From an uncultured Candidatus Binatia bacterium (GTDB lineage Bacteria > Desulfobacterota > Binatia > Bin18): a stretch of DNA of 64,000 nucleotides. Below the pieces are notes generated by a model. The model saw nothing but the letters and a program-made list of their open reading frames with translations, made no database searches and was not told the DNA's origin. Below, piece after piece: positions 24,917 to 49,123 of this stretch (the first letter of the stretch is position 1; every line of letters begins with the position of its first letter). The stretch lies in NCBI GenBank assembly GCA_965214605.1, contig OZ243961.1:862912-926911 (forward strand). The letters run 5' to 3'. A program made the translations under genes and the position numbers.

Positions 24917-24930
24917 AGATACCGGACCAT

Positions 24931-25281
24931 GTGGACACCATTGGCGCCGAGAGATGGGCACACCGGGTACGGGTTGGTCCATATGTCGTTGAAGACGCAA
25001 TGGCTCCGGCGGAGACGGAGCTCACTCAGCGCAGAGAGCACATTGAGCCATGGCTCTCTGCGCTGCTGCAGGCGGAGCATCTGAACCTGCCGGTAGGCAG
25101 CGGACTGACAGCCGCAATTGCGGAGCCCCTAGGCGCCCCAGTAGTGGATATGGCTCCGGTAGGGCCCGGCCACGAGTACGAAGAACTCGTGCTTTCCGCC
25201 GCCGAGTGCCGCGCGGAAATCAGTGGGCGCGGGAAGACGAACGTAGAGGACATGATTCGGGCGACCGGGGAGTTGATGTAG
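24931..25281 (+). pseudogene. short ORF resembling the N-terminus of a SIR2-like (ThsA-type) protein; probable fragment
   Basis: LLQAEHLNLPVGSGLTAAIAEPLG resembles the nLnfLiGSGaS NAD-binding start of SIR2_2 proteins. The ORF stops after 116 aa and is followed by about 0.8 kb of stop-rich sequence. Confidence 0.3.
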
Positions 25282-31618: not shown

Positions 31619-34600
31619 CTAGTTGCAGAGACTCGAGAGCTCTTCTTTCGTAAGAACACGCACGCCACAATTGGCTGCGACGCCAGCGAAGTACATTGGA
31701 ACGACTTCGCTAAACACGAACAGCCCCTCTAGTGATGGCGACGCTTGCTCACCAACGAAACACGCGACCGCCGCGCGGTGCTCGTTCAACAATTTGAGCC
31801 GCACAAGGTGCTTTTTCATTCGATCGGGCTTTCCGTGAACGTTGAGTTCTCCGCGAAAATCGTGCAGCTGGCGAGCAATCTCGGCCATTGTCATTGCCAG
31901 CTCCAAGTCCTTGCACTCTATCGCGAGCACGCGACCCGCCTTCCAGGCAAGGACATCGACATCTCCGTAGTCCTGATCAAGCTTGCGGTTGAGAATCTCG
32001 GTTAGCTTGATCTCCAGTCGGGTCTTCCAACCGAGCTTTTCGAGGTGGGCAGCAACTTCCTTATTAAATTCCTGTCCGCGCCTGTTTTCGGCCGCGCCGA
32101 TCCAGGAGCGCATCCGTCCCGGAGGAAAGTCCTTCGCCTCGTAACCTCCCGTGTAGCAATAGTCCAAGACCTTTCGTATGCCTGCGCGGACCAACCCGGG
32201 CGCAACTAGATAGCGCGGGGATGGATCGTCGAGCCGCACGATAGGTCTGCTAATGAGGGCCAGACGACGCCGAAAGCGCCATGGATACCAGTCTTTGGGC
32301 CGGAATCCATTCGGCGTGGAAGCCCACGTGGAGCGCGGTGAAAGAGAAAAGGCTTTAAGTATCTTTCTAACTACCACTTCATCGAGCGGCTTAGAGCCAT
32401 CGAGAGCAAATATTTCCGTTTCGGTTGTCGAGAAGACCAACTCCTGACGTTTGATCCCCTCATCTTCCAGATTGTCCATGAAGATATGCACGTCATCAAT
32501 GGTAAAGCAGAAAGCTTCTGTCCAAGCCTCACAGAACTCAGGGTCCGGTTCTCCGCGCGCAGCGCCGACTAGCTCTACATCGCGAAAGTGTTGCTCGTAG
32601 GTGTTCGCGCCATGCCGATATCGGATGACACCGAGAGTCTGTCCGTAAGGAGTGACAATGGTCTCATCGAAGTCAACGTCCGTGTGCACATCGCCGAAAG
32701 GAGTGATTCTGATCTCTGGTGCCTTGCTCTGGTATCGGATTGCCTCAGACCATCCGCCAAAGCTGTGCATCTGCATGACCTCTGCGAGGAGTCGGGAGAT
32801 GTCAAGCCGGCCCGGGTGTATCCCGGCATCTTTCGGGCATTCGCACAAAGCCATCTCGACAAGAATTCGCGTGCTAAGCGACGCTGCGTTAAGCCGGGCG
32901 ATCTCTTTCGAAGCCTCCCTCTCGGCGGCCTCCTTGTCATGATGTAAGGAAAGGGCAGCACGCGCGGTCCTGAGCCAGCGGCCGGCCTCGATTTCGACGG
33001 CTTCGTGATTCCGTAGTAGGGCGAACAATAAATGCTCGCGGTTATACTCTTTCAGCTTCGACTGGAGCTCGGTCCAAATGCTGTCAACGAGGCTGTTGAG
33101 GTACTGACAGCAAGGTTCGATTCCCTCTATACGGGGTCCTTCGTCCAGCTTTCTTGACCGCCATCCAAGCCCAATCCGCGATAGCGCGTCATCAATCTTG
33201 GAGATCACAATCGGTTTGCCCCGCGCTTTGCGGGCAACGAAATTCCGAAATTCTCGGGCGGAGAATAGATGCATGTCGCGGGCCCACTGGTCCGGGACGA
33301 TCTGCTGGACGAGGGAATTAAATATCTCGGGCGAATGGTCTTCGCTGGACAATCGGCAGGTGCCTGACACGAATGCTTCGACGAGCAAGCTTTCGGCCAT
33401 GTTCTCGGGTACGCGAAACGAGGCTAGGAAACCGTCGTGAGCTGTGACACGTACAACGTGATCGTCGACGTTGATTTCAAGTAGTGCTTTGGCCTGAGCG
33501 CGCAAGGGAATTGGTATTGCTTGGTCTGTAGGATCCCTATCTTCGAACCGACATATCCATGCAATAGGACCTTCTGGCAATGACCGAATCTTCTCCTCGA
33601 TAACCCTTGCTGAGCGTTCGAGCCAGGTAGCGAGGGCGTGCCACAGTGGGAAATGAAGATCGCGATCCGTCGAGTTTGGTATTTCCACTGTGATCCACCA
33701 ACCGCGTGAGTTGGTTTCGCACACTGCCACGAGCCGTTGCTGGTCGAGGTCGTCGAGACTGACGTAGAGCGGAGCGTTCTCATCTTCTTCGAAAAATGAG
33801 CTCTCATCCAATCGTCGAACTCTGACGGTTCGCTTGTCCCACGTCCGTGCGCGGTGGATATCGCTGCTCTTAGCGCCTTTCTTGCGGACTTCGAGCAGAC
33901 TGTTCGGTTTAACAACGATCATGGACGGCTTGCCAGCTAAGTCGTCCGGCAGCTGGCCGTGAGGGATGAGATGACCTTCGAGTGATTCGGACCAGGCATA
34001 GAGGTTCAGTAGGCCGTTGACATTCATGAGACGAACGCCGATCTGGGCAAGGCGGGCCTGCATATCAAGCAAGCTCCAGAGGTTCAACGGAGAAAAGCTC
34101 GATGCCCAACTCATTGAAATTAGGTCCGGCGCCGAAACTGACTCGACCCGCCAGCGTCGGTCCTCAACGCTTTCGAACTCACACATCATCGGCCGACCCC
34201 AGGGACATAGGACGATCAACGACAATCCCGCGCGAAAGCGTGGCTTGGAAGAGTAAGCCTGCTGTATTTGAGCGATGCTAGTCTTTATCGCTCTACTGAA
34301 GCGACTAGGGTCAGGATTTAGGCCAACCACTCCAGTCAGATCGTAGTGAACGAAACTGTCGACGACAAAACAAATATGTAGCAATCGGCCTTCGTCGACC
34401 CAATCGGCTGCATTGGCGAAGAACACGCCGCCCAGCTTCTGGAATGGCAGCGGTGGCGCGAGGTCACCGCCGAGGAGAGGAACATTTCTGAAGGTCTCTG
34501 CGAATTCGTTCACGTAAACCCGATAGAGTTGCTCTTCGTATCCATTAGATAGGCAGAATTCAATGACCATCCGGCGAACCGCCATTGAGACGGCCGCTGG

Positions 34601-35401
34601 AAGCGTAAGGTAGAGATCACCGCCAATCGCGAGAAGCGGACGCCGCTCGAGCGAGGAATGGCCGTAGCTCTCACGACGCAATCGATCACGATCCTGTCTG
34701 TCCAGGATAAACGTCTCAATGTCTTCGCGTGCGATGCCCAGGCGGGCTAAATCGTTCTCGCGAAAAACAACGCGTTCTTTTGCTATCCCTCCCCGACGGA
34801 CGAGACTCTTGGCCACGCTGCGAATAGGTTTCGTGTCGCCCACAGCGAACGCTGGGATTCCGGAACGTTTGATGGTTTCATCAGACAGTGTGAGAAGAGC
34901 GTACGCCGCACGCCTAAGGCCAGCAAACGGCTCCTGGGACGGCATATTGTCTAGCACATTGATGAAGCATTGTAGATAGAACGCCGAGCTTTCGTACAGC
35001 CCCTGGAATATCAGGAAGTCCCGATTGCTGGTGGACACGCGCGACACGAAGACATCCTCTGCGGGGTCTTCCATTTGGCCAGCCCAACCTTCTCCAAGTG
35101 TTTCGAGCCAAGACGTCAGCGAGCATGTGAGCGGCGTTAGCTCGCCGCGCGCGTTCGCGACGGCGAGATGTTGAAGAAGCTCGAGGCGAACCGCACTTGC
35201 CTGAAACTCAGGCATAGTGAACAGGCCAGCGATAAAAGAGGTGAGCGACGATAGCTTGTACTTCCTTAATGAGCGCGCCAGCTTTCGATGCGCTTTAAAG
35301 AGACGCGAATACGTGGAGCTGGCCAACGGGTCTTCTTCTGGGTGGTACAGACTTTCGATGTGTTTGGTCACAGCTCCCAGTATCAGCTTTAGGCGGTACA
35401 A
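31619..35401 (-). CDS. large hypothetical protein (about 1250-1260 aa) with C-terminal PD-(D/E)xK nuclease-like motif
   Basis: Uninterrupted 3.78 kb ORF. The C-terminus FNKEVAAHLEKLGWKT...DYGDVDVLAWKAGRVLAIECKDLE fits a restriction-endonuclease-like D...ExK core. No GxxxxGK[ST] anywhere. Start uncertain: TTG at 35401 or GTG 30 nt downstream. Confidence 0.8.
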   Translation of the reverse strand: MYRLKLILGAVTKHIESLYHPEEDPLASSTYSRLFKAHRKLARSLRKYKLSSLTSFIAGLFTMPEFQASAVRLELLQHLAVANARGELTPLTCSLTSWLETLGEGWAGQMEDPAEDVFVSRVSTSNRDFLIFQGLYESSAFYLQCFINVLDNMPSQEPFAGLRRAAYALLTLSDETIKRSGIPAFAVGDTKPIRSVAKSLVRRGGIAKERVVFRENDLARLGIAREDIETFILDRQDRDRLRRESYGHSSLERRPLLAIGGDLYLTLPAAVSMAVRRMVIEFCLSNGYEEQLYRVYVNEFAETFRNVPLLGGDLAPPLPFQKLGGVFFANAADWVDEGRLLHICFVVDSFVHYDLTGVVGLNPDPSRFSRAIKTSIAQIQQAYSSKPRFRAGLSLIVLCPWGRPMMCEFESVEDRRWRVESVSAPDLISMSWASSFSPLNLWSLLDMQARLAQIGVRLMNVNGLLNLYAWSESLEGHLIPHGQLPDDLAGKPSMIVVKPNSLLEVRKKGAKSSDIHRARTWDKRTVRVRRLDESSFFEEDENAPLYVSLDDLDQQRLVAVCETNSRGWWITVEIPNSTDRDLHFPLWHALATWLERSARVIEEKIRSLPEGPIAWICRFEDRDPTDQAIPIPLRAQAKALLEINVDDHVVRVTAHDGFLASFRVPENMAESLLVEAFVSGTCRLSSEDHSPEIFNSLVQQIVPDQWARDMHLFSAREFRNFVARKARGKPIVISKIDDALSRIGLGWRSRKLDEGPRIEGIEPCCQYLNSLVDSIWTELQSKLKEYNREHLLFALLRNHEAVEIEAGRWLRTARAALSLHHDKEAAEREASKEIARLNAASLSTRILVEMALCECPKDAGIHPGRLDISRLLAEVMQMHSFGGWSEAIRYQSKAPEIRITPFGDVHTDVDFDETIVTPYGQTLGVIRYRHGANTYEQHFRDVELVGAARGEPDPEFCEAWTEAFCFTIDDVHIFMDNLEDEGIKRQELVFSTTETEIFALDGSKPLDEVVVRKILKAFSLSPRSTWASTPNGFRPKDWYPWRFRRRLALISRPIVRLDDPSPRYLVAPGLVRAGIRKVLDYCYTGGYEAKDFPPGRMRSWIGAAENRRGQEFNKEVAAHLEKLGWKTRLEIKLTEILNRKLDQDYGDVDVLAWKAGRVLAIECKDLELAMTMAEIARQLHDFRGELNVHGKPDRMKKHLVRLKLLNEHRAAVACFVGEQASPSLEGLFVFSEVVPMYFAGVAANCGVRVLTKEELSSLCN

Positions 35402-36099: not shown

Positions 36100-36852
36100 C
36101 GGGATGACACCAGTGTCAGGAAGTTGCTTTGAGGCGGTCGGACGTCAGCCACTGCGAAGGGCCCGACACCTTTTGCAGCTTCTTGAGGGTGGCGAGCGCC
36201 TGCTGTGAAAGCAGAGGCACCCAGACGGGAAATCGCGCGTGCTAGTCCAGCCATTCCTGTGGAAACGTCGTAGTCGGTCAGGCAAATGTATTCTCCGTTG
36301 ACGTACCGCGCCTCCGCTTCCCCGGACATCTCGATGACGGCGAGGCCGATCGCTGCTGTCCCGATGTGGGTCACCGTGCAGCGCATTGGCGACCACAGGT
36401 CGGTATGGTGGTGACGCTTTCCCGGATTCTCGCTTTCGTCGCCCTTCGCGCGGTGGAATTGCTCGGAGTTGGGCGTGCTGACCACACGATGGCCGCGTTT
36501 TTCCAAGGCCAGGAAGAATTGCGTTGGCAAAGGCGAGAGCCTCGTCCAACCCTGTCTTGGTCACGGCCAGGTTACCGAGCAGTTTCTTGGCCGACTTGAG
36601 GTATCCGCCGTGCCAGGAGACGCGACCGGCTGCCGGCTTCGCCCACCAGCCATACTCCGGCCGCGGCACGTTGAGCAGCATGCAGACCCGGGCCATGTAG
36701 TTCAACGAAACGCCGAATCGGGCCGCGACCTTGAGCATGGGCTCGGAGCAGACTAGTTCGTACAGCGCTTCTCGGCCGACAGGCCTCTCGCCGTGATTAA
36801 CCAGTGGTGTGGGGATCTCCGTGGTGTCCCGTTCCTCTGTCACGATGCTCAA
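36100..36852 (-). pseudogene. decayed copy B of the HTH-containing hypothetical gene (paralogue of 30170-31420), 3'-truncated
   Basis: ...EALYELVCSEPMLKVAARFGVSLNYMARVCMLLNVPRPEYGWWAKPAAGR... and ...FFLALEKRGHRVVSTPNSEQFHRAKGDESENPGK...IGLAVIEMSGEAEARYVNGEY lie in different frames. Confidence 0.6.
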
Positions 36853-36955
36853 TCAACCCCAATCTCAAGATTCCTCCCCGAGGGGTCGCCTGACGGATTG
36901 CTCCAGCCAGACTGCTCTCTGGTTCGAAACGCCGCGGGTCCGGTCTGCCAGAGGT
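36140..36955 (-). repeat. direct repeat copy B (partner of 30610-31615)
   Basis: See copy A. Similarity extends past the gene start into the upstream non-coding region in both copies. Confidence 0.75.
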
Positions 36956-37032
36956 CGCGAGGGTGGGATGTTACGCCGATCAATGATACAAATCCTCGGA
37001 GTATAGGATCTACACATCAAGTATTTGTATCA

Positions 37033-37650
37033 ATGGAGAAACGGCGCTCGCAGCGCGAGCTGGCACAGGCCCTTCTAAGAGAACGGGGAATCCTACGGTT
37101 AGCCGAGTTGCGCGAGGCCGGCGTGACCGCTGCGACGACGAGTCGTATGGAGCGGGCCGGTGAGGTCGTCCGTCTGTCGCGGGGAGTCTATCAGCTGTCC
37201 GACGTTGAGCTGGACCCGAACCACAGCTTGGCGGAAGCCGCAAAGCGGGTACCGAAGGGGGTCGTCTGCCTCGTTTCGGCCCTAGCGTTTCACGGCCTAA
37301 CGGACCAACTGTCGCCCAAAGTCTGGATGGCGATCGGACCGAGGGCCTGGGCACCGCAGCGCGACGGCACGCCCATTCGCCTCGTCCGCTTCACCGATAG
37401 TCTGCTGAGAGAGAGCTTTGAGACGCATGTGATCGAAGGCGTTGCGGTCAAAATCTTCGGAGCCGCTAGAACAGTGGCGGACTGCTTCCGGCATCGCGGC
37501 AAGGTCGGTCTGTCCGTCGCAATCGAAGGACTTCGGGAGGCTCTGAGACAGCGCAAGACAACCCCCGCGGAAATCGCTCGCCAAGCCGAAAAGGGCGGGG
37601 TTTCGACGGTGCTCAGGCCGTATCTTGAGGCGCTGACCGCCAATGCCTAG
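37033..37650 (+). CDS. abiEi: type IV toxin-antitoxin AbiEi-family antitoxin / transcriptional regulator
   Basis: MEKRRSQRELAQALLRERGILRLAELREAGVTAATTSRMERAGEVVRLSRGVYQL...VCLVSALAFHGLTDQ...IEGVAVKIFGAARTVADCFRH is the AbiEi pattern. ATG at 37033. Confidence 0.8.
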   Translation: MEKRRSQRELAQALLRERGILRLAELREAGVTAATTSRMERAGEVVRLSRGVYQLSDVELDPNHSLAEAAKRVPKGVVCLVSALAFHGLTDQLSPKVWMAIGPRAWAPQRDGTPIRLVRFTDSLLRESFETHVIEGVAVKIFGAARTVADCFRHRGKVGLSVAIEGLREALRQRKTTPAEIARQAEKGGVSTVLRPYLEALTANA

Positions 37651-38458
37651 AGAGATCAGGAATATCGGCGCCTCCATACGCGCCCGCCGGCAAAATCTCT
37701 CCAGAGAAACGGGTCAGAGCTTCGAACTGATACTGACTCGCTACGCACTCGAAAGGCTCCTCCATCGCCTCAGCACGTCTGCCTATGCCGAGCGATCCGT
37801 GCTCAAGGACGCAATACCGCTCACGAGTTGGTCCGAGGCTCCACACCGTGCCACGCGCGATCTTGACCTCGCAGGCTTCTGCGATCCAAGCCCCGACGCG
37901 ATGGTCGCCGTGTTCAAGGAAACCCTCGGCGGCGGACGTCGCCGACGGCGTCGAGTTCGATTTGGACGCACTTCGCGTCAACCCAGATCCGGGGGGAACT
38001 CAAGTACAGCGGACTACGGTTGCGTACGACAGCGTCGATCAGAGGTCATCGACTATCCGTCTGTGCTCGACCTTCCGAAACCGCGCCTGCGGGCCTATGT
38101 CCGAGAAACGGTGATTGCAGAGAAGTTCCAGGCTATGATTGCACTGGGACACGCAAACAGCCGAATGAAGGATTTCTACGACATTTGGCTCCTCAGCCGA
38201 TCGTTCCTTTTCGACGACGATCGGCTGGCGCGCGCAATCGCCGCAACCTTTGAACGACGTGGGACGGAGATTCCAGATGCGCTCATCCCAGGATTCGCTG
38301 AAGATGAGCAGAAGCAGCGTCAGTCGAACGCCTTTCTGGAAAACGTGGTCCTCGATCCCGGCAGCCTCGCCAATGTGATTGCGACGGTTTCCGAGTTCAT
38401 TATGCCGCATGCGATGTCGGCAGCAGAGTTAAAGCGGGGCAGTGAGCCTAGTGGTTAA
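37643..38458 (+). pseudogene. AbiEii/AbiGii-family nucleotidyltransferase toxin, internally frameshifted and deleted
   Basis: The ends match the family (IRARRQNLSRETGQSFELILTRYALERLLHRLS...RATRDLDL; ...RETVIAEKFQAMIALGHANSRMKDFYDIWLL). The middle switches frames: DVADGVEFDLDALRVNP sits in frame 2 and LRLRTTASIRG in frame 3, and it is shorter than expected. Confidence 0.65.
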
Positions 38459-38490
38459 CCTGAGAGCCCTGAGAACGAAGAACGATCGTT

Positions 38491-38720
38491 GCAGACAACG
38501 AAACCTCCCTTGATCTTCTCTATTACGAGGCTATCGCGCCCACGATAATACGCCTGATCAACGAGAAATCTGACGAACCGTTAACAGTGGGGTGTGCACG
38601 GCGTTGGGGGCCGGGAAAATCAAGCGTGCTTATGATGAATGGTGCAGGAGGCATTCGCCAGACAGGACCACGTGCTCCGCGTGCGTTTCAGCTGAAAGAC
38701 GAGAATATGATATTTGCGGC
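38491..38720 (+). pseudogene. KAP-family P-loop NTPase, N-terminal fragment
   Basis: ADNETSLDLLYYEAIAPTIIRLINEKSDEPLTVGVHG, then after a frame change WGPGKSSVLMM (Walker A of KAP NTPases). It decays within about 200 nt. Confidence 0.45.
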
Positions 38721-38925
38721 GGAAGAGCCAGAGATTGCTCTTCCGCCGTACCCGCAAAGACGAATTACGAACTACCTGATCGAAAACACGGCCCCTTCGA
38801 ATCCGCTCGTATCACGTTGCTGAGACGTAGTGATGAGACAGAAGTCGCCAGCAACGCGGTGAGCCTCGGCAACATGAAGGCGAAGACGTATCGCAGCGAG
38901 GGCTCGCCGAGGCGATCTGGGCCAA

Positions 38926-39386
38926 GGAGTGGTGATCGCCGAAGGCTTGACCGAACAGCTCAGCCTCGCAGCGGTGGCCGACAAGACGTGCTCTGCTGAC
39001 GATGAGTGCTATCCGCTTGACCTCTCTCCGTGACCCTAATCTCTGCGGATGGCGACGGGAATACCTCTGAGCCGGGAGGGTTTTTCGTCGCTCTCGGGCT
39101 ACCGACCTTTGCCTTCCTCGACAATAAGAAACGGCCCGCCAAAGAGGCACCAGCTTTGGCTGATGCGGGATTCAGACTTTTGTGTGAAATCCCCTTCCCA
39201 GGGATGGAGGAACTACTCGCATCCGAGGTCCCTCTGGAACATCAATGGGAATATCTGTCTTTCCTGTACGACGAGGAGTTGGTGCCAAAGGCTGGGAGCC
39301 CCGTTGATCGCCCTGATGATGACACGGTCCGCTCGCTCACCAGAAACGTTCTCAAGGACTATACGGGGATGGGGGCGCGCCGCTGA
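38926..39386 (+). pseudogene. OLD-family / TOPRIM nuclease, C-terminal fragment
   Basis: GVVIAEGLTEQLSL..., then in another frame ISADGDGNTSEPGGFFVALGLPTFAFLDNKKRP, which is the TOPRIM arrangement of OLD/GajA-like enzymes. No ATPase part is present. Confidence 0.45.
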
Positions 39387-39491
39387 GTTGATTGAGCTTT
39401 CAGGAGATGTCGAAAGAAATCATCACCATAATGAAGACCTGCTGCGAGTCGGGCCAGTCCCAGCGCAGCCAGAGGCAATGACCGGCTGCGC

Positions 39492-40245
39492 CAGCACCGC
39501 GGGAAGATTCTTAAGTTTGCTCCCGAGGGGCGGCGCCGGGTCAAGGAGCAGATAAAAAATGGGCTCTTTTGAATACTATCAGACCTCGTTCAGCTACCAG
39601 ATCAGCGAGACCGACGAAGAAAATTTCGTCGGGGTACCCGAGCAGGGCGGCAAGGACTTGATCTCGCCCGACCCATTGGCGCCCGGAACCATCTACAGCG
39701 CCTTGGTGAGCGGCGATGGCACAGCCGGCATGTACCGTCTAGAGATCGCTACCTCGTCTGGTAGCGGCAAGCTTAAGCTGGCCGGCGGCGTCTCTGGTGC
39801 AATGAAGGAATCAATCAACCGCACCTTCAGCTATCTGCTCGCCAACAAGGAGGCCTTTGGTGTCGCCCGCGAGGTCGACACGTTCGACTTCCATGCAGAG
39901 GTCCTCGACCTCTTTAGCAACAAGGTAGAGGCCGAGCTCGGTGTCGCCTTCTTCCTCGCCGCATACTCGGTCTCCCCGCAGCCCAGGCTTCTAGTCCTCG
40001 GCGACATGAGCGTCCAGGGCAACGTGAAGACCGTCCAGTCGCTCACCGAGCCGCTGCAGGTCGTCATGGACAACGGCGCCAAGCACGCCCTTATCCCCAT
40101 TAAGAATAAACGCCGGTTCTTCGAAGTGCCCCCCGACGTCTTCGAACACGCCGACCCCATTTTTATGGCGACCTTCGTCAGGCTGCATTCAAGGCGTTGG
40201 GGTTGGCCCAACGAAATTGGCACAGGGAGGGACCTTGTTCGATGA
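39492..40245 (+). pseudogene. brxL: BREX BrxL (Lon-like C-terminal domain) 3' remnant with homopolymer frameshifts
   Basis: ...ILKFAPEGRRRVKEQIK in one frame, then MGSFEYYQTSFSYQ...GMYRLEIATSSGSGKLKLAGGVSGAMKESINRTFSYL...LVLGDMSVQGNVKTVQSLTEPLQVVMDNGAKHALIPIKN... (BrxL/Lon C-terminal fold). The canonical tail FYGDLRQAAFKALGLA is in a third frame after a T5 run at 40160-40164. Confidence 0.6.
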
Positions 40246-42344
40246 GGATCAACCAGCTCGCAACGAAGGAGAACCTTAAGTTGGCTTGGCGGCGAATCAC
40301 GACCGGCAGCAACCGCCCATACAAATCTTTCTATCGATTGATCTATTACGCGTACGAGGTCGCGCTTGATGCGAATCTATCTGACCTTCGGCAACGCCTG
40401 ATCGGTGGTGCTTTCGAACCGCGCCACCCGGAGCGCATCTACATGCCGAAGGCATCGGGCCTTCATCGGCCGCTTGCACTGCTCAACATCGAGGATCAGA
40501 TCGTCCTTCAGGCGTTCGCGAACCTCGCAGCAAAGCGAATGCACAAGAAGCGCGCTCCACTTCAGTTCGAGGTTGTGTTCAGCAATATCCTTCAGAAACC
40601 GGATAGCATCTTCTTCTTCCAGCGCTGGCAGTACACGTACGGGGCGTTTCAGCGACAGATCAAGAAACATTATGCGGACGGAATGCGATGGGTCGGCGAC
40701 TTTGACCTTGCCGCATTCTACGACACCATTTCTCACGAGCTTCTTCTCAGGACTATCTATCCACGCACGAAGCACGACGCCCTGCCTTGGATCGCGAAGT
40801 GTTTGAAGACGTGGAGCTCCGACCAGGCAGCCTCCGGACACGGGCATGGGTTGCCTCAGGGCCCGCTCGCATCCGACTTCCTTGCTGAGTGCTTTCTCCT
40901 TCCCATAGACTTCGCATTGCAGAAACGCCGGGGCTATACGAGGTACGTCGACGACGTACGGCTCTTTGGCACAACAGAGGATGAGGTTCGCGCCGATCTG
41001 ATAGAGCTCGAAAATCATTGTAGAGAGCGGGGTCTCATCCCGCAGACCGGCAAGTTCGCGGTCAGGCGTGCTCACAAGGTGCAGGACGCGCTGGGGATGC
41101 TGCCTAGCATCTCTGACCCACAACATGAAGAAGCTGGGAAGGAAAAAATCAATAAGAAGCAAGCACTCGACGCCTTTCGCTCTGCAATTGGGGGGAAACC
41201 GTACCGAGTGATCGACAAGACTAGACTTCGGTTCGTTCTCTACCGTGCGGAGCCGGATACGGATTTGCTTGAGCTGGTTCTACGTCTGCTCCCGCGTCAC
41301 CCCGAGCATGCAGATGCTTTCTTCGCCTACCTCGGCCAATTCGGTTACCGGAAGCCGATCGAGCGACTCTGCCTTGATCTCGTTCGGAGCAATCCGTATC
41401 CATACGTTCGCGGAGAAGCGTGGCATGTGCTGGCGAAGTACATCCGCAAATCAAGGTCAGAGGCCGCGAGCAATCTCCGAGCCCTTACAGACCGCGCGGT
41501 GAACATCGCCAAAAATAAATCCCAGGAGAGCTTCATGGAGAAGTGGGGAGGCTGTCACTTCTTGTGCGTCTCGGAAGAACTGACCGCACGACGTCACAGT
41601 GGACGGCTGAGGAAACAAGCAGCGTTGTTGCAATCGCTATTGGCGCCTGTTCTTCCGGATAGTGCTTTTGGAAAGGGCGGGGTCGTCAGGACGTTTCTTT
41701 CGCATAGCAGCCCGGAGCCTGGACTCTCGGTTTGCTCTGCCCTGTATGAGCGCGGCCTGATGCCATCTTCGTTCGGATTGAAAGTCGCGGAACTTCCCTC
41801 CCAAGTGGCCCATACGCTCCGAGAGCTGAGGGTGATCTCGTCGCCGCCGGGCCCGAAAGTTGATCCCATTTCTGAGATTCTAAGCGCCCGATACAGGGTG
41901 CCACAAGGCAAGTCGTGGCGCACGCTGTTGGCGGCCGAGTATGTCCATGCACTCGGCCTTCTGAAGCAGGCTGAGGCGGTCTTCGACAGCGGGCGTTCGT
42001 TCTGGTTGGCATGTCAGAATTCGTTCAATCAGACCGTATTCTTGGCTTTGCAGCGTCACCTGTCCGCGACGAGGCACCCAGCGGCTTGCGAGACGGTCGA
42101 TAAGAAAGGGCGGGTGGTCGATTTCGGTGTGACGCTGGTCGCCAACGGACCTTTCTCGAAGAGCTGTCCGACGATCGGTGACTGCTTCCGCGACATGAAC
42201 ACGCGTCGCAATCATCTACCGGTCTCGCACCCCTACGAGAAGAAGACCGCAGCTCGATCGCGTCACCTCAAGAAGCGAGAGAGGGACCAATTTGTTGACA
42301 AATTGCGCACAGCCTACGCACATTTTGTCGCGCTAATGCCTTGA
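40242..42344 (+). CDS. reverse transcriptase with C-terminal alpha-helical (HEAT-like) repeat region; UG/Abi class-1-like defence RT
   Basis: RT motifs PKASGLHRPLALLNIEDQIVLQA (1-2), GDFDLAAFYDTISHELL (3), HGLPQGPLASDFLAE (4), YTRYVDDVRLFG (5, YxDD) and GLIPQTGKFAV (6). About 400 aa of helical sequence follow (for example NPYPYVRGEAWHVLAKY). ATG at 40242 is preceded by GGGAGGGA. Confidence 0.85.
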   Translation: MRINQLATKENLKLAWRRITTGSNRPYKSFYRLIYYAYEVALDANLSDLRQRLIGGAFEPRHPERIYMPKASGLHRPLALLNIEDQIVLQAFANLAAKRMHKKRAPLQFEVVFSNILQKPDSIFFFQRWQYTYGAFQRQIKKHYADGMRWVGDFDLAAFYDTISHELLLRTIYPRTKHDALPWIAKCLKTWSSDQAASGHGHGLPQGPLASDFLAECFLLPIDFALQKRRGYTRYVDDVRLFGTTEDEVRADLIELENHCRERGLIPQTGKFAVRRAHKVQDALGMLPSISDPQHEEAGKEKINKKQALDAFRSAIGGKPYRVIDKTRLRFVLYRAEPDTDLLELVLRLLPRHPEHADAFFAYLGQFGYRKPIERLCLDLVRSNPYPYVRGEAWHVLAKYIRKSRSEAASNLRALTDRAVNIAKNKSQESFMEKWGGCHFLCVSEELTARRHSGRLRKQAALLQSLLAPVLPDSAFGKGGVVRTFLSHSSPEPGLSVCSALYERGLMPSSFGLKVAELPSQVAHTLRELRVISSPPGPKVDPISEILSARYRVPQGKSWRTLLAAEYVHALGLLKQAEAVFDSGRSFWLACQNSFNQTVFLALQRHLSATRHPAACETVDKKGRVVDFGVTLVANGPFSKSCPTIGDCFRDMNTRRNHLPVSHPYEKKTAARSRHLKKRERDQFVDKLRTAYAHFVALMP

Positions 42345-42724
42345 TGCAGGTTTCCCGTCGTGTCGTAGTTTTACCTTGCAGTTTCCGCCGACGGTGCTTG
42401 AGGCGCCGCGAAGTAAGGCCGAGCTATCGCTGGGATTGACAACGGAAAACTCAAATACCTTACTTCCATACAGAATTTGTTGATGACGATTCGGGCACCT
42501 TCTGGAACAAGCGGCCGATTATTGGACGCCCCTTCGGTGCGGGTAGTCATCCATGTTTTGACCTGCTGTCATCCCTAAGCCGTCACCTGTGCTTCGCGAC
42601 CTCGGCGGTCGCCGCCTCTGGCGCGAATTTCAAAGCTATCCCTGTTGTGACTCTCGGCCTCTATGTACCCCACTGATATACGAAGTCCATCAGATCAGCG
42701 ATTGGGGGTTTCGGAATCGCTTAC

Positions 42725-44632
42725 GTGCCGGGAGCTAGCTCTCAGGCGACGCACAATCTGACTATCTCCTTACGCTCGAACGATGAACCAGAGGCGATGT
42801 TGAAGCCCGTGATGCTGGAACACGGATTGTCCGCCAATGGTGAGCAGTCGATACAGGTCCTGGCAAACCTTCGCTCGCCGTCCGGTCAGCTAGCGTTGAA
42901 GTTGATTTCCGCAAGGACGCAACAGACAGAAGCGCTCGGCTTGGCGTTAGCGAGGCTTTATCTAGAGTATCAAGGCGCGCTGGACAACCAAGTCGTTGTT
43001 CCTTTAGATGCGCACGCCGACCTTTATCCGTCAAGCGCCGAGTCCGACGAGGTTAACGATACTATTAATCTGCAACGGACTGACTCACGCAGATTCTTAG
43101 CGAGCAGTTTATACCGAATGTGCCAAAGCTCGATACAGTGGCCTTTATCGCTCCTGAGAGAGCCCAGATCAACGTCCTGGTCAGTAGATGAGATCTGGGA
43201 TGATGAACCGGAGTCACCGGTCACCCCGACGGCAGCCTCGGCTGAGGCGGCAGAACCTGCGCCGGCACAAGAACAACCAAGTGAAAAAAGGATATCTGTC
43301 GAGCAAACATCTCCGCCGTCCAATGCTGCTGAAGGTGACAACGAGGACGAACAGGGCACCACCGCATCTTCCGGCTCGGAAGCGCCTGTTGATCCAAAGA
43401 TTGAAGCACGAGAGCGCCTAGTATCCGAGCCTGCACCTCATGCCGAAGGAGGTTTCGGGCCAGAAGGTCGCCCTGGGACCTTAATCATGCTCACACGATC
43501 AGTCTCTTTGGAGTCCAAGGCGGCGGCAAGAGCTACACGCCAGGAACGGTGATTGAGATGGCATCCATGCCGCTTCAGCACATCAATAGTGCTTCCAGGC
43601 CCGCTGGCGACCGTGATATTCCACTACAGCCCGACGCAGGATTATGCGCCGGAATGTACCTCGATGATCAATGCCAACTCGGTTGAAGAGGAGGTCCGCA
43701 GTCTCCGTGAGCGTGACAAGGCAAATCCAGAGGTGTCAGAAGGATGTGTTGATCCTTGCCCCGGCAAAGAAGGTGGACGATCGCCGAGCCGAGTACTCGG
43801 ATATCGAGGTTAAGCCGACTGCCTTCTCTGCCTCCGAGCTCAAGACCGCGCACCGGAAGTTTCTGATGGGAGCGATTGGCGGTCAGCACAAGCACATGTA
43901 TATGCGCCAAATCAATCTCATCATGAGGGGGCTTCGGGGCAACCTGACGTTGGATGCGCTGCGAGCAGGCATTGTGCTAACTCTGGTCTGTCCGACCACC
44001 TCAAAGAGCTGGCCCAGACGCGGCTATTGTTTGCTGGCGAATACATAGACGACCAGCAGCGGTTCAGGACCTGATTCGCCCCGGCCGCTTGATCAGCGTG
44101 GATCTGCGTTATGAGTACTATGAGTACATTGAGAAGGACGAGGCGCTTGGGCTGTTCGTGGTAATGCTGCAGATCTTTTCGGAAGCAGCCTACCAAGGGC
44201 GTGCTTTCAATGAGTTAGTGGTTTTCAATGAAGCTCACAAGTACGTCGGGAACGATGATCTCGTGGTCCGGTCTTGTTGAGGTTGTGCGCGAGATGCGCT
44301 ACAAGAGGACCAGTACCATGGTGGCTTCTCAGGACCCACCATCAGTACCCGTCTCCCTCATTGAGCTGTCATCGCAGATCATCATGCACAAGTTCAACTC
44401 GCCAGCCTGGTTGAAACACATCCATAAGGCGAATGCTGCGCTTGGTGAGCTGACCTCCGACAAGATGAGCCACCTCGGAACCAGGGGGGAAGCCTACGTG
44501 TGGTCGAGCAAGGCCTCGGATGAGGCGTTTACTCGGGGAGCGGTGAAGATCACGCGGGTCACCCAGCATGGCGGCAGCACAAAGACCGCTGTTGGCTCAG
44601 GGGCAGGCTGGGCTCAAGAACGGAGAGGGTAA
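42725..44632 (+). pseudogene. DptH/HerA-like (DUF87 FtsK-HerA type) ATPase, multiply frameshifted
   Basis: The fragments ISARTQQTEALGLALARLYLEYQG...VVPLDAHADLY, a Walker A SLFGVQGGGKSYT (frame shifted near 43500-43560), Walker B-like FNELVVFNEAHKY and ...VREMRYKRTSTMVASQDPPSVPVSLIELSSQIIMHKFNSPAWLKHI...GEAYVWSSKA...VTQHGGSTKTAV are spread over all three frames. Confidence 0.6.
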
Positions 44633-44797
44633 AACCGAGCGGCACCACAACTTCCGGCCGAGGGCTGGCTCCGACCACTCTGGCGGGGAGGCAAGCGACA
44701 ACAAATGGGACTCCGTTTTGCGTCCGGGATGGCGTAGATGCAGGGTCTGATGTCTTGTGCTTGGGAAGTCAGGACGGAATCTGGAGAGGAGTCTTGA

Positions 44798-46492
44798 GTG
44801 GCGAAAGCTGAGGCGACGGTTGAAGAGCTCGTTGGCATGATTGAGCGGGGGGAGTTGCGGCTTCCCGAGATGCAGCGCCGATACGTTTGGCGTTCACCCC
44901 GGGTCAGAGATTTGCTTGATTCCCTGTATCGAGGTTATCCATCGGGTGCGATCCTGCTATGGGAAACTGACGAAGATGTGCCGCTTCAGGATTTCGCGAT
45001 CACACAGCAGGGAACCTCTTATCAGACAACGCGGCTGTTGCTTGATGGTCAACAGCGTCTGACTTCGCTTTCGGCCGTGATTCGAGGCGAACCGGTGACG
45101 GTTCGTGGTCGCCGTAGACCTATCGAGATCTTGTTCAACCTGGAGCACCCCGAGGATCTTGCAGTAGTCACCGAAGTGAATGAGGACTCGGATGAAGAAG
45201 AGGGGCGGAGCGAAGATGAGGTCGATTCGACAGAGAATGAGCTGCAGGCGCGTTTCAACCGGATGACTTTCGTAGTGGGTACGCGGAAGCTCGAGCAGCT
45301 GCCACACTGGGTGAAAGTCTCGGACGTATTCAAGAGTGAAAGCGATAGACCCTTTTTGAAGCGTGCAGGCATTAGTGACCTCGACGATCCGCGCGCGGAA
45401 AAATATAGTCAACGACTCGCGCGACTCCGCGGCATTCGCAGGTACGTGTACCGGATGGACATTCTCGAACGGTCATTGCCCTACGACGAGGTCACAGAAA
45501 TCTTTGTCCGAGTGAATTCCCTGGGGACGAAACTGCGCGGTTCGGACCTCGCGCTAGCTCAGATCACAGCCAAATGGCGGGGTGCTCTGAGGATATTCCA
45601 AGACTTTCAGGAGGAGTGCGCGAAGTCTGGTTTCGATCTTGAGCTCGGAACTTATTTGAGGAACCTCGTTGCGTTCGCAACCGGGCAGTCGGGCTTCCTT
45701 ACTGTCGGCAGTCTCTCTCTCGAACGACTGCGGACAGCGTGGACCGAGTGCGTAGAGGGCATGCAATTTGCCCTGAATTTCTTGAAAAGCAACGCATCGA
45801 TTGATAGCCCAGCGTTGCTGTCCTCTCCGTTCCTGATTGTGATGCTGGGCTACTATGGGCATACAAGAAACTACGAACTGGTCCCCGAAGAAGCGGATCG
45901 GTTGCGGCACTGGGCTCTAGTGGCCAATGCCAAAGGACGCTACTCTCGGGGCTCAACCGATACCTTCCTGGACCAAGACCTGGCAACGGTTCGACAAGGC
46001 GGCGGGGCGGAAGAGATGTTGGAACGCCTACGCTTGCAGGTCGGACGACTGGATATTGCCCCCGGGGAGTTAGAGGGTCGGAATCGGAGTAGCGCCGTTT
46101 TCAAGACAATGTTTCTCGCTTTCCGTTCCGGAGGGGCGAGAGACTGGCGTTCGAACCTCCAGATCGCACTTGATCACAGGGGATCAGGGCATCGCCTGCA
46201 GTTCCACCATATCTTCCCAAAAGCGATCTTGAAGAGCAGCTACACCGCGCGAGAAGCGGATGATATCGCGAACCTGGCATTCATAGGCGGGAGGACCAAC
46301 CGCCAGATCAGCGACAAGGCGCCGGAGAAATATTTTCCCGGACTCATTCAGGAATCCGGTATCGCTCCGTTTGAAGCGCAATGTATCCCGACTGATAAAA
46401 CCTTGCTGGGTGCGGATGCCTACAAGAAGTTCCTGAGAGAACGGCGAAAGCTGGTGAGCCGACGGCTGAATGAATTTCTCGGGATCGAGTAG
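44798..46492 (+). CDS. DUF262 (ParB-like, DGQQR) + C-terminal HNH/DUF1524-like nuclease protein (GmrSD/SspE-like)
   Basis: LPEMQRRYVW...SLYRGYPSGAILLW...LLLDGQQRLTSL (DUF262). C-terminus has RLQFHHIFPKAIL...ANLAFIGGRTNRQI (HNH-like). Confidence 0.85.
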   Translation: MAKAEATVEELVGMIERGELRLPEMQRRYVWRSPRVRDLLDSLYRGYPSGAILLWETDEDVPLQDFAITQQGTSYQTTRLLLDGQQRLTSLSAVIRGEPVTVRGRRRPIEILFNLEHPEDLAVVTEVNEDSDEEEGRSEDEVDSTENELQARFNRMTFVVGTRKLEQLPHWVKVSDVFKSESDRPFLKRAGISDLDDPRAEKYSQRLARLRGIRRYVYRMDILERSLPYDEVTEIFVRVNSLGTKLRGSDLALAQITAKWRGALRIFQDFQEECAKSGFDLELGTYLRNLVAFATGQSGFLTVGSLSLERLRTAWTECVEGMQFALNFLKSNASIDSPALLSSPFLIVMLGYYGHTRNYELVPEEADRLRHWALVANAKGRYSRGSTDTFLDQDLATVRQGGGAEEMLERLRLQVGRLDIAPGELEGRNRSSAVFKTMFLAFRSGGARDWRSNLQIALDHRGSGHRLQFHHIFPKAILKSSYTAREADDIANLAFIGGRTNRQISDKAPEKYFPGLIQESGIAPFEAQCIPTDKTLLGADAYKKFLRERRKLVSRRLNEFLGIE

Positions 46493-46825: not shown

Positions 46826-48307
46826 GTTGATCACCGCGCCTCCGCCGATGCCTTCGCCACAGAATTGAGGTGGTCCGCCCACCACTGCATCATCCGGGTT
46901 CGTTCTTCGAACCGATCACTCCGGTCGTAGGTGCCCTTAACCTTGTTCTGCTCCGTGTGAGCTAGCGCCCGTTCCACGGCATCAACGGACCATATGCGGT
47001 GCTTTTACCGTCGACCTCGGCGACAGCCTCATTGAGGAGCGTCGAAGCGAGGGCGCGGAAACCGTGGACGGTGGTGAATCCGGTACACGGCGAAGATCAT
47101 CGTGTTCTAGCTCGCCGGTTTGTCCTCAAGGCGGCCGGGCATCAGCCACCGCGAATGGCCCGATACCTTGCGAAGCTCCTCAAGCGTGGCGAGCGCCTGC
47201 TGTGACAGAAAGATGCGGTGTTCGCGGCGGTTCTGCATCCGTTCCCCCGGGACCGTCCACACGCCTTCCTCACAATCGAACTCCGCCCACCTCGCTTCGC
47301 GGACCTCGCTGATGCGCGCCAGGGTGAGGATCAGCAGCCGCAGTCCCAGCCGGGTTGCCGCATCGCCGTTGTAGGTCTCAAGTCCATGCAGGAACCTCGG
47401 TAGTTCGTCGGCGGCGAGGGCGCGGTCTGCTCGCTCTCCTTGCGTGGCTTCAGGTTATCGTGGAGCTCGCCGGCAGATTGACCTTGCGGTAGCCGAACGC
47501 GACGGCGCGGGAGAACACGGCCCACATGCGCTGCAGCACGCGCGTCGCGATCTCGCCAGCGCCGCGGTCCTCCATGCCCTCGATCAGGGCCATGATCTCG
47601 CGCGGTTGGATCTCGTCGATGGGGCGCGGGCCCAGGGTCGGCAGGATGTCAGTCTCGAAGGATCGCCATACCTAGGAAGCGTGCTTGCGGGGCGAGCCGG
47701 GCGTTTGTCGCGGGTACCACTCCTTGGCGACGGAGAAGAAGGTCGGGATCGATGAGTCGACCGCCTGTTTCTCTGCCTGCTTGGCGGCGGAGGGGTCGTC
47801 GAGCTTACGGGCATTCTACCATTTCTCGCAGGCCTCGGCCAGGGCGACTTTGGCTGAGGGGCTTCTCCCATGACGCGGGGGCCTTGCCGCGCCAGAGCTT
47901 GCCGCCAGCCGAGGTCACGAACACACTGTCGGCCAGCCGGAGCTTCCCCGCGTTCACGGGCACCACGAAGGTCGCACCGCGTCGGGCCAACTCCTCAACC
48001 AATTCCATCACCAGCGCGCGATTGCTCGACCTCAACCGTCGGCACCACCGTGAGGTCACCCGAGATGTAAAATGATGAATTTCGCGAACGGGCCCGCTTT
48101 CCCCGCCCTTGTACTCCTGATCCCCGTCTTGTCCCGAACGCTTCGGCTGAGCTCCACGATGAGACGATCGGCCTGACCGTGGTACTCCTTCCACTTGTCG
48201 GCCGGAAGGCGGAGCACGTTACTATCAAAGGAGCGAATCTGAGTGTTCGTCAGGGGCAGGCTGCACCCCTGTTTATCTTCGATTCGTTCACCAAACCGCT
48301 CTTTCAT
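46826..48307 (-). pseudogene. P4-type tyrosine recombinase (integrase), multiply frameshifted
   Basis: Recognisable blocks in different frames: ...DILPTLGPRPIDEIQPREIMALIEGMEDRGAGEIATRVLQRMWAVFSRAVAFGY; RLGLRLLILTLARISEVREARWAEFD; REHRIFLSQQALATLEEL; TVHGFRALASTLLNE; AVERALAHTEQNKVKGTYDRSDRFEERTRMMQWWADHL*. The N-terminal third (47.9-48.3 kb) is assigned less securely. Confidence 0.7.
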
Positions 48308-48942
48308 GTCGCTATGCCGAAGTGCCGCCGGACCTCGCCGGTGCCAACAAACTGCGACAGTAGCCGGTAGTTCTGCTTTTGGTGCCGGACCCTGCCCGCG
48401 ACAATCGCCGGATGAATCCCGAGTGCTTCTGCCAAATTCATGACGGCCATGGGCGTCGGATGTGCCTTCACGGCGTTCGCCTCCCAGACCGCCTTTGGTA
48501 TGAGAGCCTCTTCCGCCCAGTCATCCGCCTGCCTCTCTCGCAGATCTTCCCGTCCGCCTTCCACTTTGCGGAGCGTCAAGTCATCGACGAAGGCATTGCC
48601 CTTGTCGTTGTCCAGGTGCCGGCCGACATGGGCCAACTCGTGCAGTAGGCAGAACCAAAAATTGTCGATGCAGTCGTGGCGCAGGGTCAGCCTGACGACC
48701 GGCCGTTCATCACCGAGCCGCAATGCCGCTCCGTCGAGATATGTTTGTGGCAGATGGTGTACGATCACGAGCGGAATCCCGCGTCTGGCCAGAAGTTCCT
48801 TGGCCAGACGCGGCCTCTCCCCGGAGCAGCTCAGTTGTGCCACCTTCTTGAGAAAGTCCACAGTGACGGCGCCGCGCTTGTAGTTCACCTGCGGCCGCTC
48901 CTCGTTCGTCTTCGCCAGAACCTGCCAGCACCAAGCTTTCAT
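48304..48942 (-). CDS. ImmA/IrrE-family zinc metallopeptidase (possibly N-terminally frameshifted)
   Basis: HEXXH motif FCLLHELAHVGRH plus the C-terminal helical part. A likely original N-terminus (MAKLNWIPGG... from 49102) is in another frame, with the shift near 48950. The stop overlaps the integrase ATG (ATGA). Confidence 0.7.
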   Translation of the reverse strand: MKAWCWQVLAKTNEERPQVNYKRGAVTVDFLKKVAQLSCSGERPRLAKELLARRGIPLVIVHHLPQTYLDGAALRLGDERPVVRLTLRHDCIDNFWFCLLHELAHVGRHLDNDKGNAFVDDLTLRKVEGGREDLRERQADDWAEEALIPKAVWEANAVKAHPTPMAVMNLAEALGIHPAIVAGRVRHQKQNYRLLSQFVGTGEVRRHFGIAT

Positions 48943-49123
48943 GGGGATCCATCTTGGCGTTTGCGCGCACGTGATCGTTCTTCCGGTGGAGTACGGCGCC
49001 GGCAACCTTCGCTCCTCCCGCACGAGTGATCAGATCACGGATGATCTCATCCGCGCGCTCCACGAGATTGGGGCCGCCTGGAATCCAGTTCAGCTTCGCC
49101 ATCGCCTTGACGGGAAACCGGCT

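Follow-up and report, generated by a model that had tools for sequence, protein, structure and literature searches.

A UG19-large reverse transcriptase in a decaying bacterial defence island, with relatives carried as integron gene cassettes

The stretch of DNA analysed here (64,000 nucleotides, referred to as the window) carries a stand-alone reverse transcriptase (RT) gene, the domains and immediate surroundings of which are collected in Table 1. The gene is intact, as the original prediction had proposed: it is open throughout and is translated into 700 residues without an internal stop, Pfam RVT_1 covers residues 138–274 of the product (E=1.8e-13), and the catalytic YVDD is found at residues 235–238 (nt 40944–40955). 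In an alignment of 60 relatives reaching down to 24% identity, D155, R234, Y235, D237, and D238 are invariant. The gene also has its own putative ribosome-binding site, again in agreement with the earlier reading, in the form of a Shine-Dalgarno-like run; conservation of this run was looked for in the relatives of the RT and was not found. An alternative TTG start at 40197, which would add 15 codons to the ORF, was rejected, since these codons belong to the brxL remnant upstream, the tail of which is read through here. One copy of the RT gene is present in the 4.37 Mb genome.

Table 1. Features of the RT gene and its upstream neighbour, in positions of the window.
Feature	Coordinates	Strand	Remarks
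brxL 3' remnant, Lon-like C-terminal part	39559-40245	+	PADLOC BrxL 459-668 of 680, E=1.4e-54; Pfam Lon_C
Shine-Dalgarno-like GGGAGGG	40225..40231	+	10 nt before the ATG; read off the sequence
UG19-large reverse transcriptase gene	40242..42344	+	700 aa plus stop
RT (fingers/palm) domain, residues 1-288	40242..41105	+	RVT_1; alpha/beta region in AF2
Flexible linker, residues 289-299	41106..41138	+	sole segment with pLDDT<50
Alpha-helical repeat domain, residues ~300-535	41139..41846	+	stack of ~18 short helices in AF2
C-terminal helical domain, 165 aa, residues 536-700	41847..42341	+	separate fold in AF2
RRN-x5-H motif, R655-H663	42204-42230	+	in the C-terminal domain

The window copy sits in a dense but decaying defence island. 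Shosta, Hma, Upx, AbiE, and GmrSD are the defence genes of the window, which additionally holds fragments of Gabija (GajA), BrxL, mad8, and PD-Lambda-2 (PD-Lambda-2_B). Both genes flanking the RT gene had been described as wrecked, and this description stands, with a truncated, frameshifted brxL on the 5' side and, on the 3' side, nothing but a mad8 fragment and ORFs that could not be assigned. The brxL remnant is N-terminally truncated and has lost 1 nt from a run of T close to its end, because of which its stop overlaps the start of the RT gene (ATGA); the tail of the remnant is 94% conserved, but its frame is shifted. Homologous remnants of differing lengths lie upstream of the RT gene in three related loci (L002, L004, and L044) and are missing at most loci. 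The dN/dS of the remnant is low (0.12 versus L002), and brxL was therefore intact for most of the divergence. The brxL fragment was considered as a working partner of the RT and discarded, given its frameshift-made overlap, its variable lengths, its absence at most loci, and the lack of any other BrxL in the genome of the window copy. Rather, in the subclade that includes the window copy, the remnant is a trace of former adjacency to BREX, with the RT gene placed at the 3' end of such a locus.

Surrounded by such fragments (GajA, BrxL, mad8, and PD-Lambda-2_B), the RT gene could be a silent or dying passenger, itself intact but having lost its expression or its use. Genes in cassettes usually lack a promoter of their own, and a consensus scan found no sigma-70-like promoter upstream of the RT gene; furthermore, a relative in another genome (G312) has three in-frame stops. 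However, such a scan is weak evidence here, and the state of the gene itself makes this reading quite unlikely. The 2.1-kb frame has remained open with all family-invariant residues present, the dN/dS of 0.16 against an 81%-identical relative indicates purifying selection, the Shine-Dalgarno-like motif precedes the ATG, and several independent samples (public runs of the same strain, library type unspecified) contain the RT sequence without a single difference. From the invariant motif residues and this dN/dS value, the RT is predicted to be catalytically competent.

The AlphaFold (AF2) model of the RT is confident (pLDDT 90.1, pTM 0.85), all-helical toward the C-terminus, and divided into four regions: the RT domain is joined by a flexible linker to a domain of alpha-helical repeats, behind which a further helical domain forms the C-terminus. 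Profile searches match the RT domain to the group II, AbiK, DRT9, and UG15 RT domains of the PDB. The first residue of the linker, S289, is nearly invariant, and the modelled helices of the repeat domain run from residue 305 to residue 530. No maturase X/En, nitrilase, protease, or primase domain is present in the protein, a point on which the earlier reading was right. The last ~400 residues had been taken for one repeat region free of any fusion; they are indeed all-helical, but the final ~165 residues form a separate conserved domain. Among the PDB folds retrieved by Foldseek for the whole RT, the best are AbiK, DRT4/UG15, DRT6, Abi-P2, AbiA, and DRT9, over 440–760 columns. The alignments to AbiK, DRT4, DRT6, and Abi-P2 (440–670 columns) extend well past the RT domain into the alpha-repeats.

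Modelled alone, the C-terminal domain is an all-alpha bundle of high confidence (pLDDT 94.4, pTM 0.90), in which the RRN-x5-H motif is located. Across 60 sequences, down to 24% identity, H663 is invariant and R655, R656, and E680 are nearly so, R656 being present in at least 90% of them. The segment R656-N-x5-H663 reads as Rx6H and fits the Rx4-6H motif of HEPN proteins. Sequence and profile searches gave no match for the domain in Pfam or the PDB, and Foldseek returned sub-threshold matches only (best E=1.7, nothing at E<1), among which the HEPN toxins 7ae2/6/8/9 and 5yep recur with E-values of 2.6–5.5 and TM-scores of 0.37–0.51. The domain looks HEPN-like and is a candidate member of that superfamily.

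The UG19 group was defined in 2022 by Mestre et al. (PMC9226505; PADLOC model PDLC03756) and belongs to Class 1, of which a C-terminal alpha-helical repeat domain is a hallmark; it includes a "large" form with a fused "unknown, distantly HEPN-like" domain (PMC9226505). Its role in defence was predicted by the same authors only from looking over individual loci (PMC9226505). The present protein is matched by the PADLOC RT_UG19 model end to end (519 bits, E=5.2e-156; residues 3–697 versus profile positions 3–559 of 562), followed by UG21 (173.7 bits) and UG32 (135 bits). It has been held that no specific UG group could be assigned to this RT, which this match contradicts, whereas the broader proposal, that this is a defence-type RT of UG/Abi Class 1 with helical repeats, is upheld. 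What UG19 is described by is found here, namely the full-length best profile, YxDD and the motif A aspartate, the alpha-repeats, and the extra C-terminal domain. Judged from the protein sequence, with HMM ranking as a proxy for a tree with the reference RT set, the RT is a UG19-large enzyme and belongs to Class 1 within the UG/Abi defence RTs, and its C-terminal 165-aa domain is the fused domain that defines this form. The window copy is thus a further member of a catalogued type and not an unclassifiable one.

Two neighbouring assignments were weighed against this placement. The first, the AbiK/Abi-P2/DRT4-5 type of the original prediction, is right as to architecture, the nearest structures being of this kind, and wrong as to family membership, since NCBIfam Drt4 and Drt5 score 30.1 and 19.5 against cutoffs of 450 and 550, respectively. 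The second takes the RT for a retroelement enzyme, i.e., one from a group II intron, a retron, or a DGR, instead of a UG/Abi defence RT. The best NCBIfam match by E-value is indeed the group II intron RT/maturase (TIGR04416, E 2e-25), and some sources label the homologs "retron-type reverse transcriptase". However, with 89.6 bits this match stays below its cutoff of 300, as does the retron model NF038233 with 18.8 (cutoff 235), compared with the 519 bits of UG19. No X/maturase or En domain is present, the C-terminus consisting of alpha-repeats and the further domain described above; Rfam finds no intron or msr/msd RNA, and the flanking non-coding DNA is not conserved. No TR/VR pair exists either, the two direct repeats of 26–27 nt (70–73% identity) within 10 kb being at chance level. 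The retroelement reading is refuted, with a negligible probability left to it, and the RT falls outside the group II intron, retron, DGR, and DRT3/4/5 families. Intron, retron, or DGR placement and the corresponding RNAs or repeats had been named beforehand as what would speak against a defence RT, and Rfam, the repeat search, and NCBIfam revealed none of them.

Homologs of the UG19-large RT with ~699 residues form more than 120 clusters at 67–82% identity, and full-length relatives reach down to ~27% identity. A pattern scan of genome contigs added one partial locus only, patterns from a single sequence being too specific. At all loci, the neighbours of the RT gene vary from one locus to another. 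attC sites adjoin the gene in 9 of 43 related loci (21%), five of which hold complete attC-to-attC cassettes of 2222–2286 bp, one of them in Synechococcus (L006:7967-10188). The non-coding DNA of these five cassettes amounts to 35–61 nt on the 5' side and 20–82 nt on the 3' side, plus attC. We infer that the RT unit is self-contained in about 2.25 kb, without a neighbouring gene or a long ncRNA; it is therefore as integron gene cassettes that the relatives would circulate across phyla, and this carriage would in turn account for the patchy, cross-phylum spread of the family. No attC accompanies the window copy, the best attC covariance-model match (14.9 bits, E=0.26) being at 47489, away from the gene. 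A stretch at 42370-42430 that resembles an attC core by eye was considered as a degenerate attC and rejected, as the covariance model gives no match there.

The origin of integron cassettes is an open question, and the proximity of attC to the RT gene at 21% of the loci might indicate a non-defence role in the integron, such as the provision of cDNA for cassette formation or recombination. This role is very improbable. Of the 43 copies, 34 have no attC site next to them, and the one in the window, like others, is surrounded by defence genes; IntI showed no link to the RT, the characterised relatives are all anti-phage enzymes, and the storage of defence genes in integrons is established (PMC13434031). 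Defence systems as integron cassettes are attributed to Darracq 2025, Kieffer 2025, and Getz 2025 in PMC13434031 and bioRxiv 10.64898/2026.03.17.712381. Within the papers that were searchable, neither UG19 nor a defence RT is mentioned among the genes carried by cassettes.

Membership of the class cannot by itself settle whether synthesis is templated, because DRT2, DRT9, and DRT3 copy an ncRNA, and several UG/Abi Class 1 systems are pairs of an RT and an ncRNA (PMC12489045, PMC12596737). In the manner of these systems and of retrons, the RT could copy a dedicated ncRNA beside or within its gene, for which the 380-nt ORF-free tract on its 3' side (42345-42724) would offer a place; moreover, DRT9 is among its fold matches. 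However, conservation on the 3' side stops at the stop codon, in six loci and then in ~35, and the tract folds with z=+1.27, 91 of 100 shuffles folding at least as well. Rfam contains nothing at E<=1 save for one noise match inside the ORF (CRISPR-DR29, 23.9 bits versus a gathering score of 39), which was dismissed. The complete cassettes hold only the few flanking nucleotides given above plus attC, and the upstream DNA in the subclade of the window copy is the brxL remnant, with no conserved RNA. An ncRNA template is thus unlikely, and the 380-nt tract, which is unconserved, has no structure signal, and lacks an Rfam match, was set aside as a candidate. Separately, an RNA may be embedded in the RT coding sequence or in attC.

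Since the minimal unit of ~2.25 kb includes no partner gene and is too tight to accommodate a long ncRNA, untemplated synthesis is predicted. AbiK, Abi-P2, AbiA, DRT4, and DRT6 synthesise DNA in a protein-primed, template-independent manner (bioRxiv 10.64898/2026.10.21.760695; PMC11077055). By analogy to these enzymes, the UG19-large RT would prime DNA synthesis on a hydroxyl residue of its own, for which two guesses can be made, Y27 in the N-terminal fingers (cf. AbiK) and S289, with which the RT-helical linker begins (cf. AbiA). Single-stranded DNA would then be made without a template and, upon phage infection, either this product or its contact with a phage protein may switch on an effector step, in which the C-terminal domain could act as a HEPN-type RNase or, as in AbiA, provide an oligomerisation needed for polymerase activity, so that phage replication would be arrested. 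In AbiA, the tyrosines used for priming lie in the loop that links the RT and helical domains, and the HEPN domain is catalytically inactive and mediates dimerisation (PMC11077055), for which reason the RNase role of the C-terminal domain is uncertain.

Taken as a whole, the explanation of the locus as a single-protein UG19-large RT with self-primed, untemplated DNA synthesis, mobile as a cassette and residing here in a decaying island behind brxL, is in our judgement fairly probable. A bolder version is rather doubtful, in which UG19-large is a one-protein module of ~2.25 kb that combines untemplated, protein-primed DNA synthesis with an active HEPN-type RNase, arose at the 3' end of BREX behind brxL, and became a cassette together with a piece of brxL. 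If true, this would be a rare case of a cassette whose genomic source is still readable from the cassette itself; the brxL remnant would then give a small glimpse of its place of origin.

UG19 is a group that has been named and, in the literature searched, has no member with a defence or enzymology test; the window copy and its 67–82%-identical relatives are compact, intact, and confidently modelled candidates. The cassettes indicate in practical terms how small the functional unit can be, about 2.25 kb, and the invariant Arg/His pair is a handle on whether UG19, unlike AbiA, uses a live HEPN nuclease. In addition, integron carriage places a large RT on the list of integron-stored defence genes.

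With UG19 as described (PMC9226505), the RT shares the full-length profile, the three-part make-up, the single-gene format, and the defence-island setting, without any departure at the protein level; what is new is the integron-cassette relatives, the brxL-adjacent history of the subclade, and the definition of the invariant RRN-x5-H motif. Similar to other integron-borne defence cassettes, the UG19 relatives are compact, single-ORF, attC-bounded, and found across taxa; compared with other integron cassettes, however, theirs is large at 2.25 kb, and the window copy itself lies outside an integron. AbiA of Lactococcus (PDB 8OZ7) has in common with the RT a single-gene defence format, a flexible linker, and the layout of an RT-like, a helical, and a C-terminal helical HEPN(-like) domain, with a whole-length fold alignment of 754–760 columns at a query-normalised TM-score of 0.39–0.40 and an identity of 11–12%. 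However, AbiA does not figure among the 25 PADLOC families that score best for the RT, which differs in its invariant Arg/His pair, its longer helical domain, and a linker that begins with S289 and contains no Tyr. AbiK, Abi-P2, DRT4 (UG15), and DRT6 (UG12) rank highest among the structural matches (Foldseek E 2.5e-10 to 4e-9) and likewise combine an RT with alpha-repeats in a single gene, a likeness of fold only at 12–15% identity; they do not possess the extra C-terminal domain of UG19-large. In DRT4, ssDNA synthesis is coupled to an RNase effector, the site of which is an H/D pair at the interface of the fingers and the alpha-repeats rather than a separate domain.

The reverse transcriptase (RT) of the window is encoded on the + strand by a single long open frame (40197/40242-42344 in the ORF listing), in which the ATG at 40242 yields a 700-residue product and is preceded 10 nt upstream by a GGGAGGG run. 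The RVT_1 domain of Pfam covers residues 138-274 (E=1.8e-13), residues 234-239 read RYVDDV, and the gene is present in one copy in the nine-contig genome of 4.37 Mb. These features bear out the original prediction of an RT gene at this place, and its description as an intact gene amid wrecked neighbours agrees with the defence-gene fragments of the window. The idea of a possibly unclassified RT was wrong, since PADLOC assigns it to UG19: RT_UG19 aligns residues 3-697 with profile positions 3-559 of 562 (519 bits, E=5.2e-156), followed by UG21 (174 bits) and then UG32 and UG23. UG19 belongs to the UG/Abi RTs of Class 1, which is marked by C-terminal alpha-repeat domains, and its defensive role was predicted from individual loci, not from experiment (Mestre et al. 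2022, PMC9226505); no later papers on UG19 were found in the literature searched. The RT is a new member of this known, experimentally untouched family. Group II intron, retron and DGR RTs had been named as readings that would speak against a defence RT, and no sign of them was found: the RT scores far under the cutoffs of all curated NCBIfam models, including group II intron RT/maturase (89.6 bits; cutoff 300), Drt3a (38.6; 200), Drt4 (30.1; 450), Drt5 (19.5; 550), and retron St85 RT (18.8; 235), Rfam returned no intron, retron, or other RNA at E<=1 in positions 38000-45000 of the window save one noise match, and no template/variable-type (TR/VR) repeats lie within 10 kb of the RT.

A word-indexed search retrieved >120 clusters whose proteins, ~699 aa long, are 67-82% identical to the RT, with source labels of Gammaproteobacteria, Synechococcus, Korobacteraceae (Acidobacteriota), and Aminicenantes, and an exhaustive HMMER search gave 329 representative clusters at E<1e-30, in which full-length relatives of ~700 aa reach down to ~27% identity. 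The family is sparse and patchy, occurring in 5 of 401 genomes of the phylum and missing from the genome of the same taxonomic family. In G312, another genome of the phylum, a copy that is 63-76% identical (G312:C6:147532-149635; loci L048 and L052) is, by its sequence, decaying, because it is interrupted by two TGA and one TAG. In a 60-sequence alignment, K28, L49, R76, Q90, D155, H165, P205-Q206-G207, S211, D223, R234, Y235, D237, and D238 are invariant; the catalytic residues of the RT are intact. H663 is also invariant despite its distance from the RT domain, and R655, R656, and E680 are nearly so.

An AlphaFold2 model derived from these 60 sequences is confident (mean pLDDT 90.1, pTM 0.85) and shows four regions: an alpha/beta RT domain (residues 1-288), a disordered linker that is the sole segment with pLDDT <50 (289-299), a run of short helices (~305-530), and a distinct bundle of long helices (~540-700). 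The top PDB folds in Foldseek are AbiK, DRT4/UG15, DRT6, Abi-P2, group II RTs, DRT9, and AbiA, with alignments of 440-760 columns that run well past the RT domain. The helical repeats initially ascribed to the whole C-terminus are recognizable in the run of short helices; however, the separate fused terminal domain, which defines UG19-large, had been merged into them and missed. The original prediction was sound in its observation and right in kind in its interpretation, with two corrections, i.e., the UG19 group and the fused C-terminal domain. Modelled alone, residues 536-700 reach a pLDDT of 94.4 and a pTM of 0.90, and they have no sequence match in Pfam or PDB and no significant fold match in Foldseek. 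Among their sub-threshold fold matches, the HEPN toxins 7ae2, 7ae6, 7ae8, 7ae9, and 5yep recur (TM 0.37-0.51), and the conserved motif [N/H]-x-R-R-N-x-x-P-x-x-H-P provides an Rx6H, which is as long as the HEPN signature Rx4-6H allows. Because of these folds and this motif, the domain is provisionally called HEPN-like, an assignment that is unproven.

When RT flanks were compared among 46 related loci, neither neighbouring genes nor non-coding DNA past the RT stop codon proved conserved, with the sole exception of a ~60-nt element in several loci. At the sequence level, this element bears the signature of attC, the integron recombination site: an imperfect palindrome in which one base is extrahelical, together with R'' GCCTAAC (RYYYAAC) and R' GTTAGGC (GTTRRRY). 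In ten copies, the proposed pairing is upheld in 88% of cells, register-shifted controls drop to 20-47%, and compensatory changes occur in ten pairs, a level reached by 0 of 500 shuffles. A covariance model made from these copies also recovered sites outside its training set at 34-40 bits (E 1e-6 to 4e-5): in L028 and L044, on either side of the RT in L039, and as a third site in L006. The attC lies directly beside the RT in 9 of the 43 informative loci, including members just 57% identical to the window protein. Complete cassettes, with attC on both sides, are present in five loci (2222-2286 bp; attC to start codon 35-61 nt, stop codon to attC 20-82 nt), one of which belongs to Synechococcus sp. 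CCY9201 (L006), a named genome. The RT is independent of neighbouring genes, and its minimal unit is ~2.25 kb. The model found no attC in L002, L004, or the window, where the top match (14.9 bits, E=0.26) lies in an unrelated place. Integrons are established as stores of defence genes (PMC13434031; bioRxiv 10.64898/2026.03.17.712381), and neither UG19 nor any other defence RT is named as integron cargo in the literature searched.

Right after the RT cassette of Synechococcus sp. CCY9201, a long stretch (L006:10275-15832, JAYGIC010000118.1) encodes an unknown 385-aa protein, Peptidase_C14 (caspase-like), Y4kD_C, and DUF8370 and is closed by the third attC (15734-15832, 39.9 bits); it may be a multi-gene defence cassette. 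In two loci with no other relation to each other (L005:7179-7752 and L044:3076-3670), the RT is directly preceded by a DUF6883/DUF4926 gene pair; this pair, which in L044 itself follows an attC, may represent a small toxin-antitoxin-like cassette that often adjoins the RT cassette. The leaders between attC and RT in L007, L008, L010, L006, and L012 (35-61 nt) begin alike, with a short GGCAGCC-AAAGGCT-like sequence, and have in common a GACGAAAC-like element located ~25-30 nt ahead of the ATG; this element also ends the brxL-type upstreams of the window, L002, and L004 and may be a translation signal or merely reflect shared ancestry.

Homologous brxL 3' ends lie directly upstream of the RT in the window (~690 bp), L002 (~940 bp), and L004 (~130 bp), and L044 keeps the last ~24-26 codons. 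In the window, a T6 run of brxL is T5, which causes a frameshift, the original TGA is CAA, and the true tail, PHFYGDLRQAAFKALGL, is found in the shifted frame with 94% identity to L002. Translational coupling through the overlap of the remnant stop with the RT start (ATGA) was rejected, since alignment with relatives places the true tail in another frame and the overlap is accidental. A comparison of the window with L002 gives dN/dS values of 0.12 (brxL remnant) and 0.16 (RT) at dS ~0.7-0.8; the RT is under purifying selection, and brxL was thus selected beside it for most of this divergence and truncated independently and recently. The window genome contains no further BrxL and no intact BREX-RT example was found; we infer that a BREX locus carried the ancestor of the subclade at its 3' end. 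The brxL tail of L044 sits downstream of a strong attC inside a cassette array, and just before it lies another attC of marginal score (17.6 bits, E=0.078), which tentatively suggests that this RT cassette formed from a brxL-adjacent copy. The brxL-remnant and RT pair of L002 (L002:8469-10733) lies in an island by a fragmented phage-type integrase and SmpB, whose vicinity is a classic tmRNA-adjacent integration hotspot.

The surroundings of the RT form a dense defence island.

Features of the defence island around the RT (window positions)
Feature	Coordinates	Strand
ShosA	16015-16917	
HmaA, HmaB, HmaC	18311-29434	
Upx	31619-35401	
AbiEi/AbiEii	36793-38458	
GajA fragments	38587-39386	
BrxL C-terminal fragment	39559-40245	
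RT	40242-42344	+
ORF without family match	42725-43552	
mad8 fragment	44228-44632	
GmrSD/HEC-05 gene	44798-46492	
PD-Lambda-2_B fragment	48304-49023	-

The Hma system is complete (HmaA SNF2 helicase 1688, HmaB methylase 1511, and HmaC ATPase 1172 bits), with a gap of 1.1 kb between HmaB and HmaC and a Swt1-like HEPN domain at the HmaC N-terminus. ShosA is DprA-like (DNA_processg_A; 306 bits). Two separate pieces of Gabija GajA survive (profile 301-333 and 433-545 of 600), the rest being gone, and no GajB was seen; PD-Lambda-2_B is a truncated defence gene that retains the C-terminal half (profile 195-396 of 402, E=4e-74). The 380-nt tract downstream of the RT was rejected as an ncRNA, since it is not conserved and its fold is weaker than those of shuffled controls (z=+1.27).

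The family becomes easier to test through four modest additions: its carriage by integrons, the limit on system size that follows, the brxL footprint, and the definition of the Arg/His motif. Since the cassette leaves no room for an ncRNA of the DRT2 or DRT9 type, and since its nearest structural neighbours, AbiK, Abi-P2, AbiA, DRT4, and DRT6, are protein-primed polymerases that need no template, the RT would most likely prime on its own hydroxyl residue and make untemplated ssDNA. Two nearly invariant residues are speculative candidates for priming: Y27, in an N-terminal fingers loop like the tyrosine of AbiK, and S289, at the start of the flexible linker between the RT and helical regions, where the priming tyrosines of AbiA sit. 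That H663 and R656 do not vary across the family speaks for a role in catalysis or in nucleic-acid binding. The C-terminal domain could either be active as an RNase effector of the HEPN type or serve as an oligomerisation module needed by the polymerase, as in AbiA, whose HEPN is inactive yet essential (PMC11077055).
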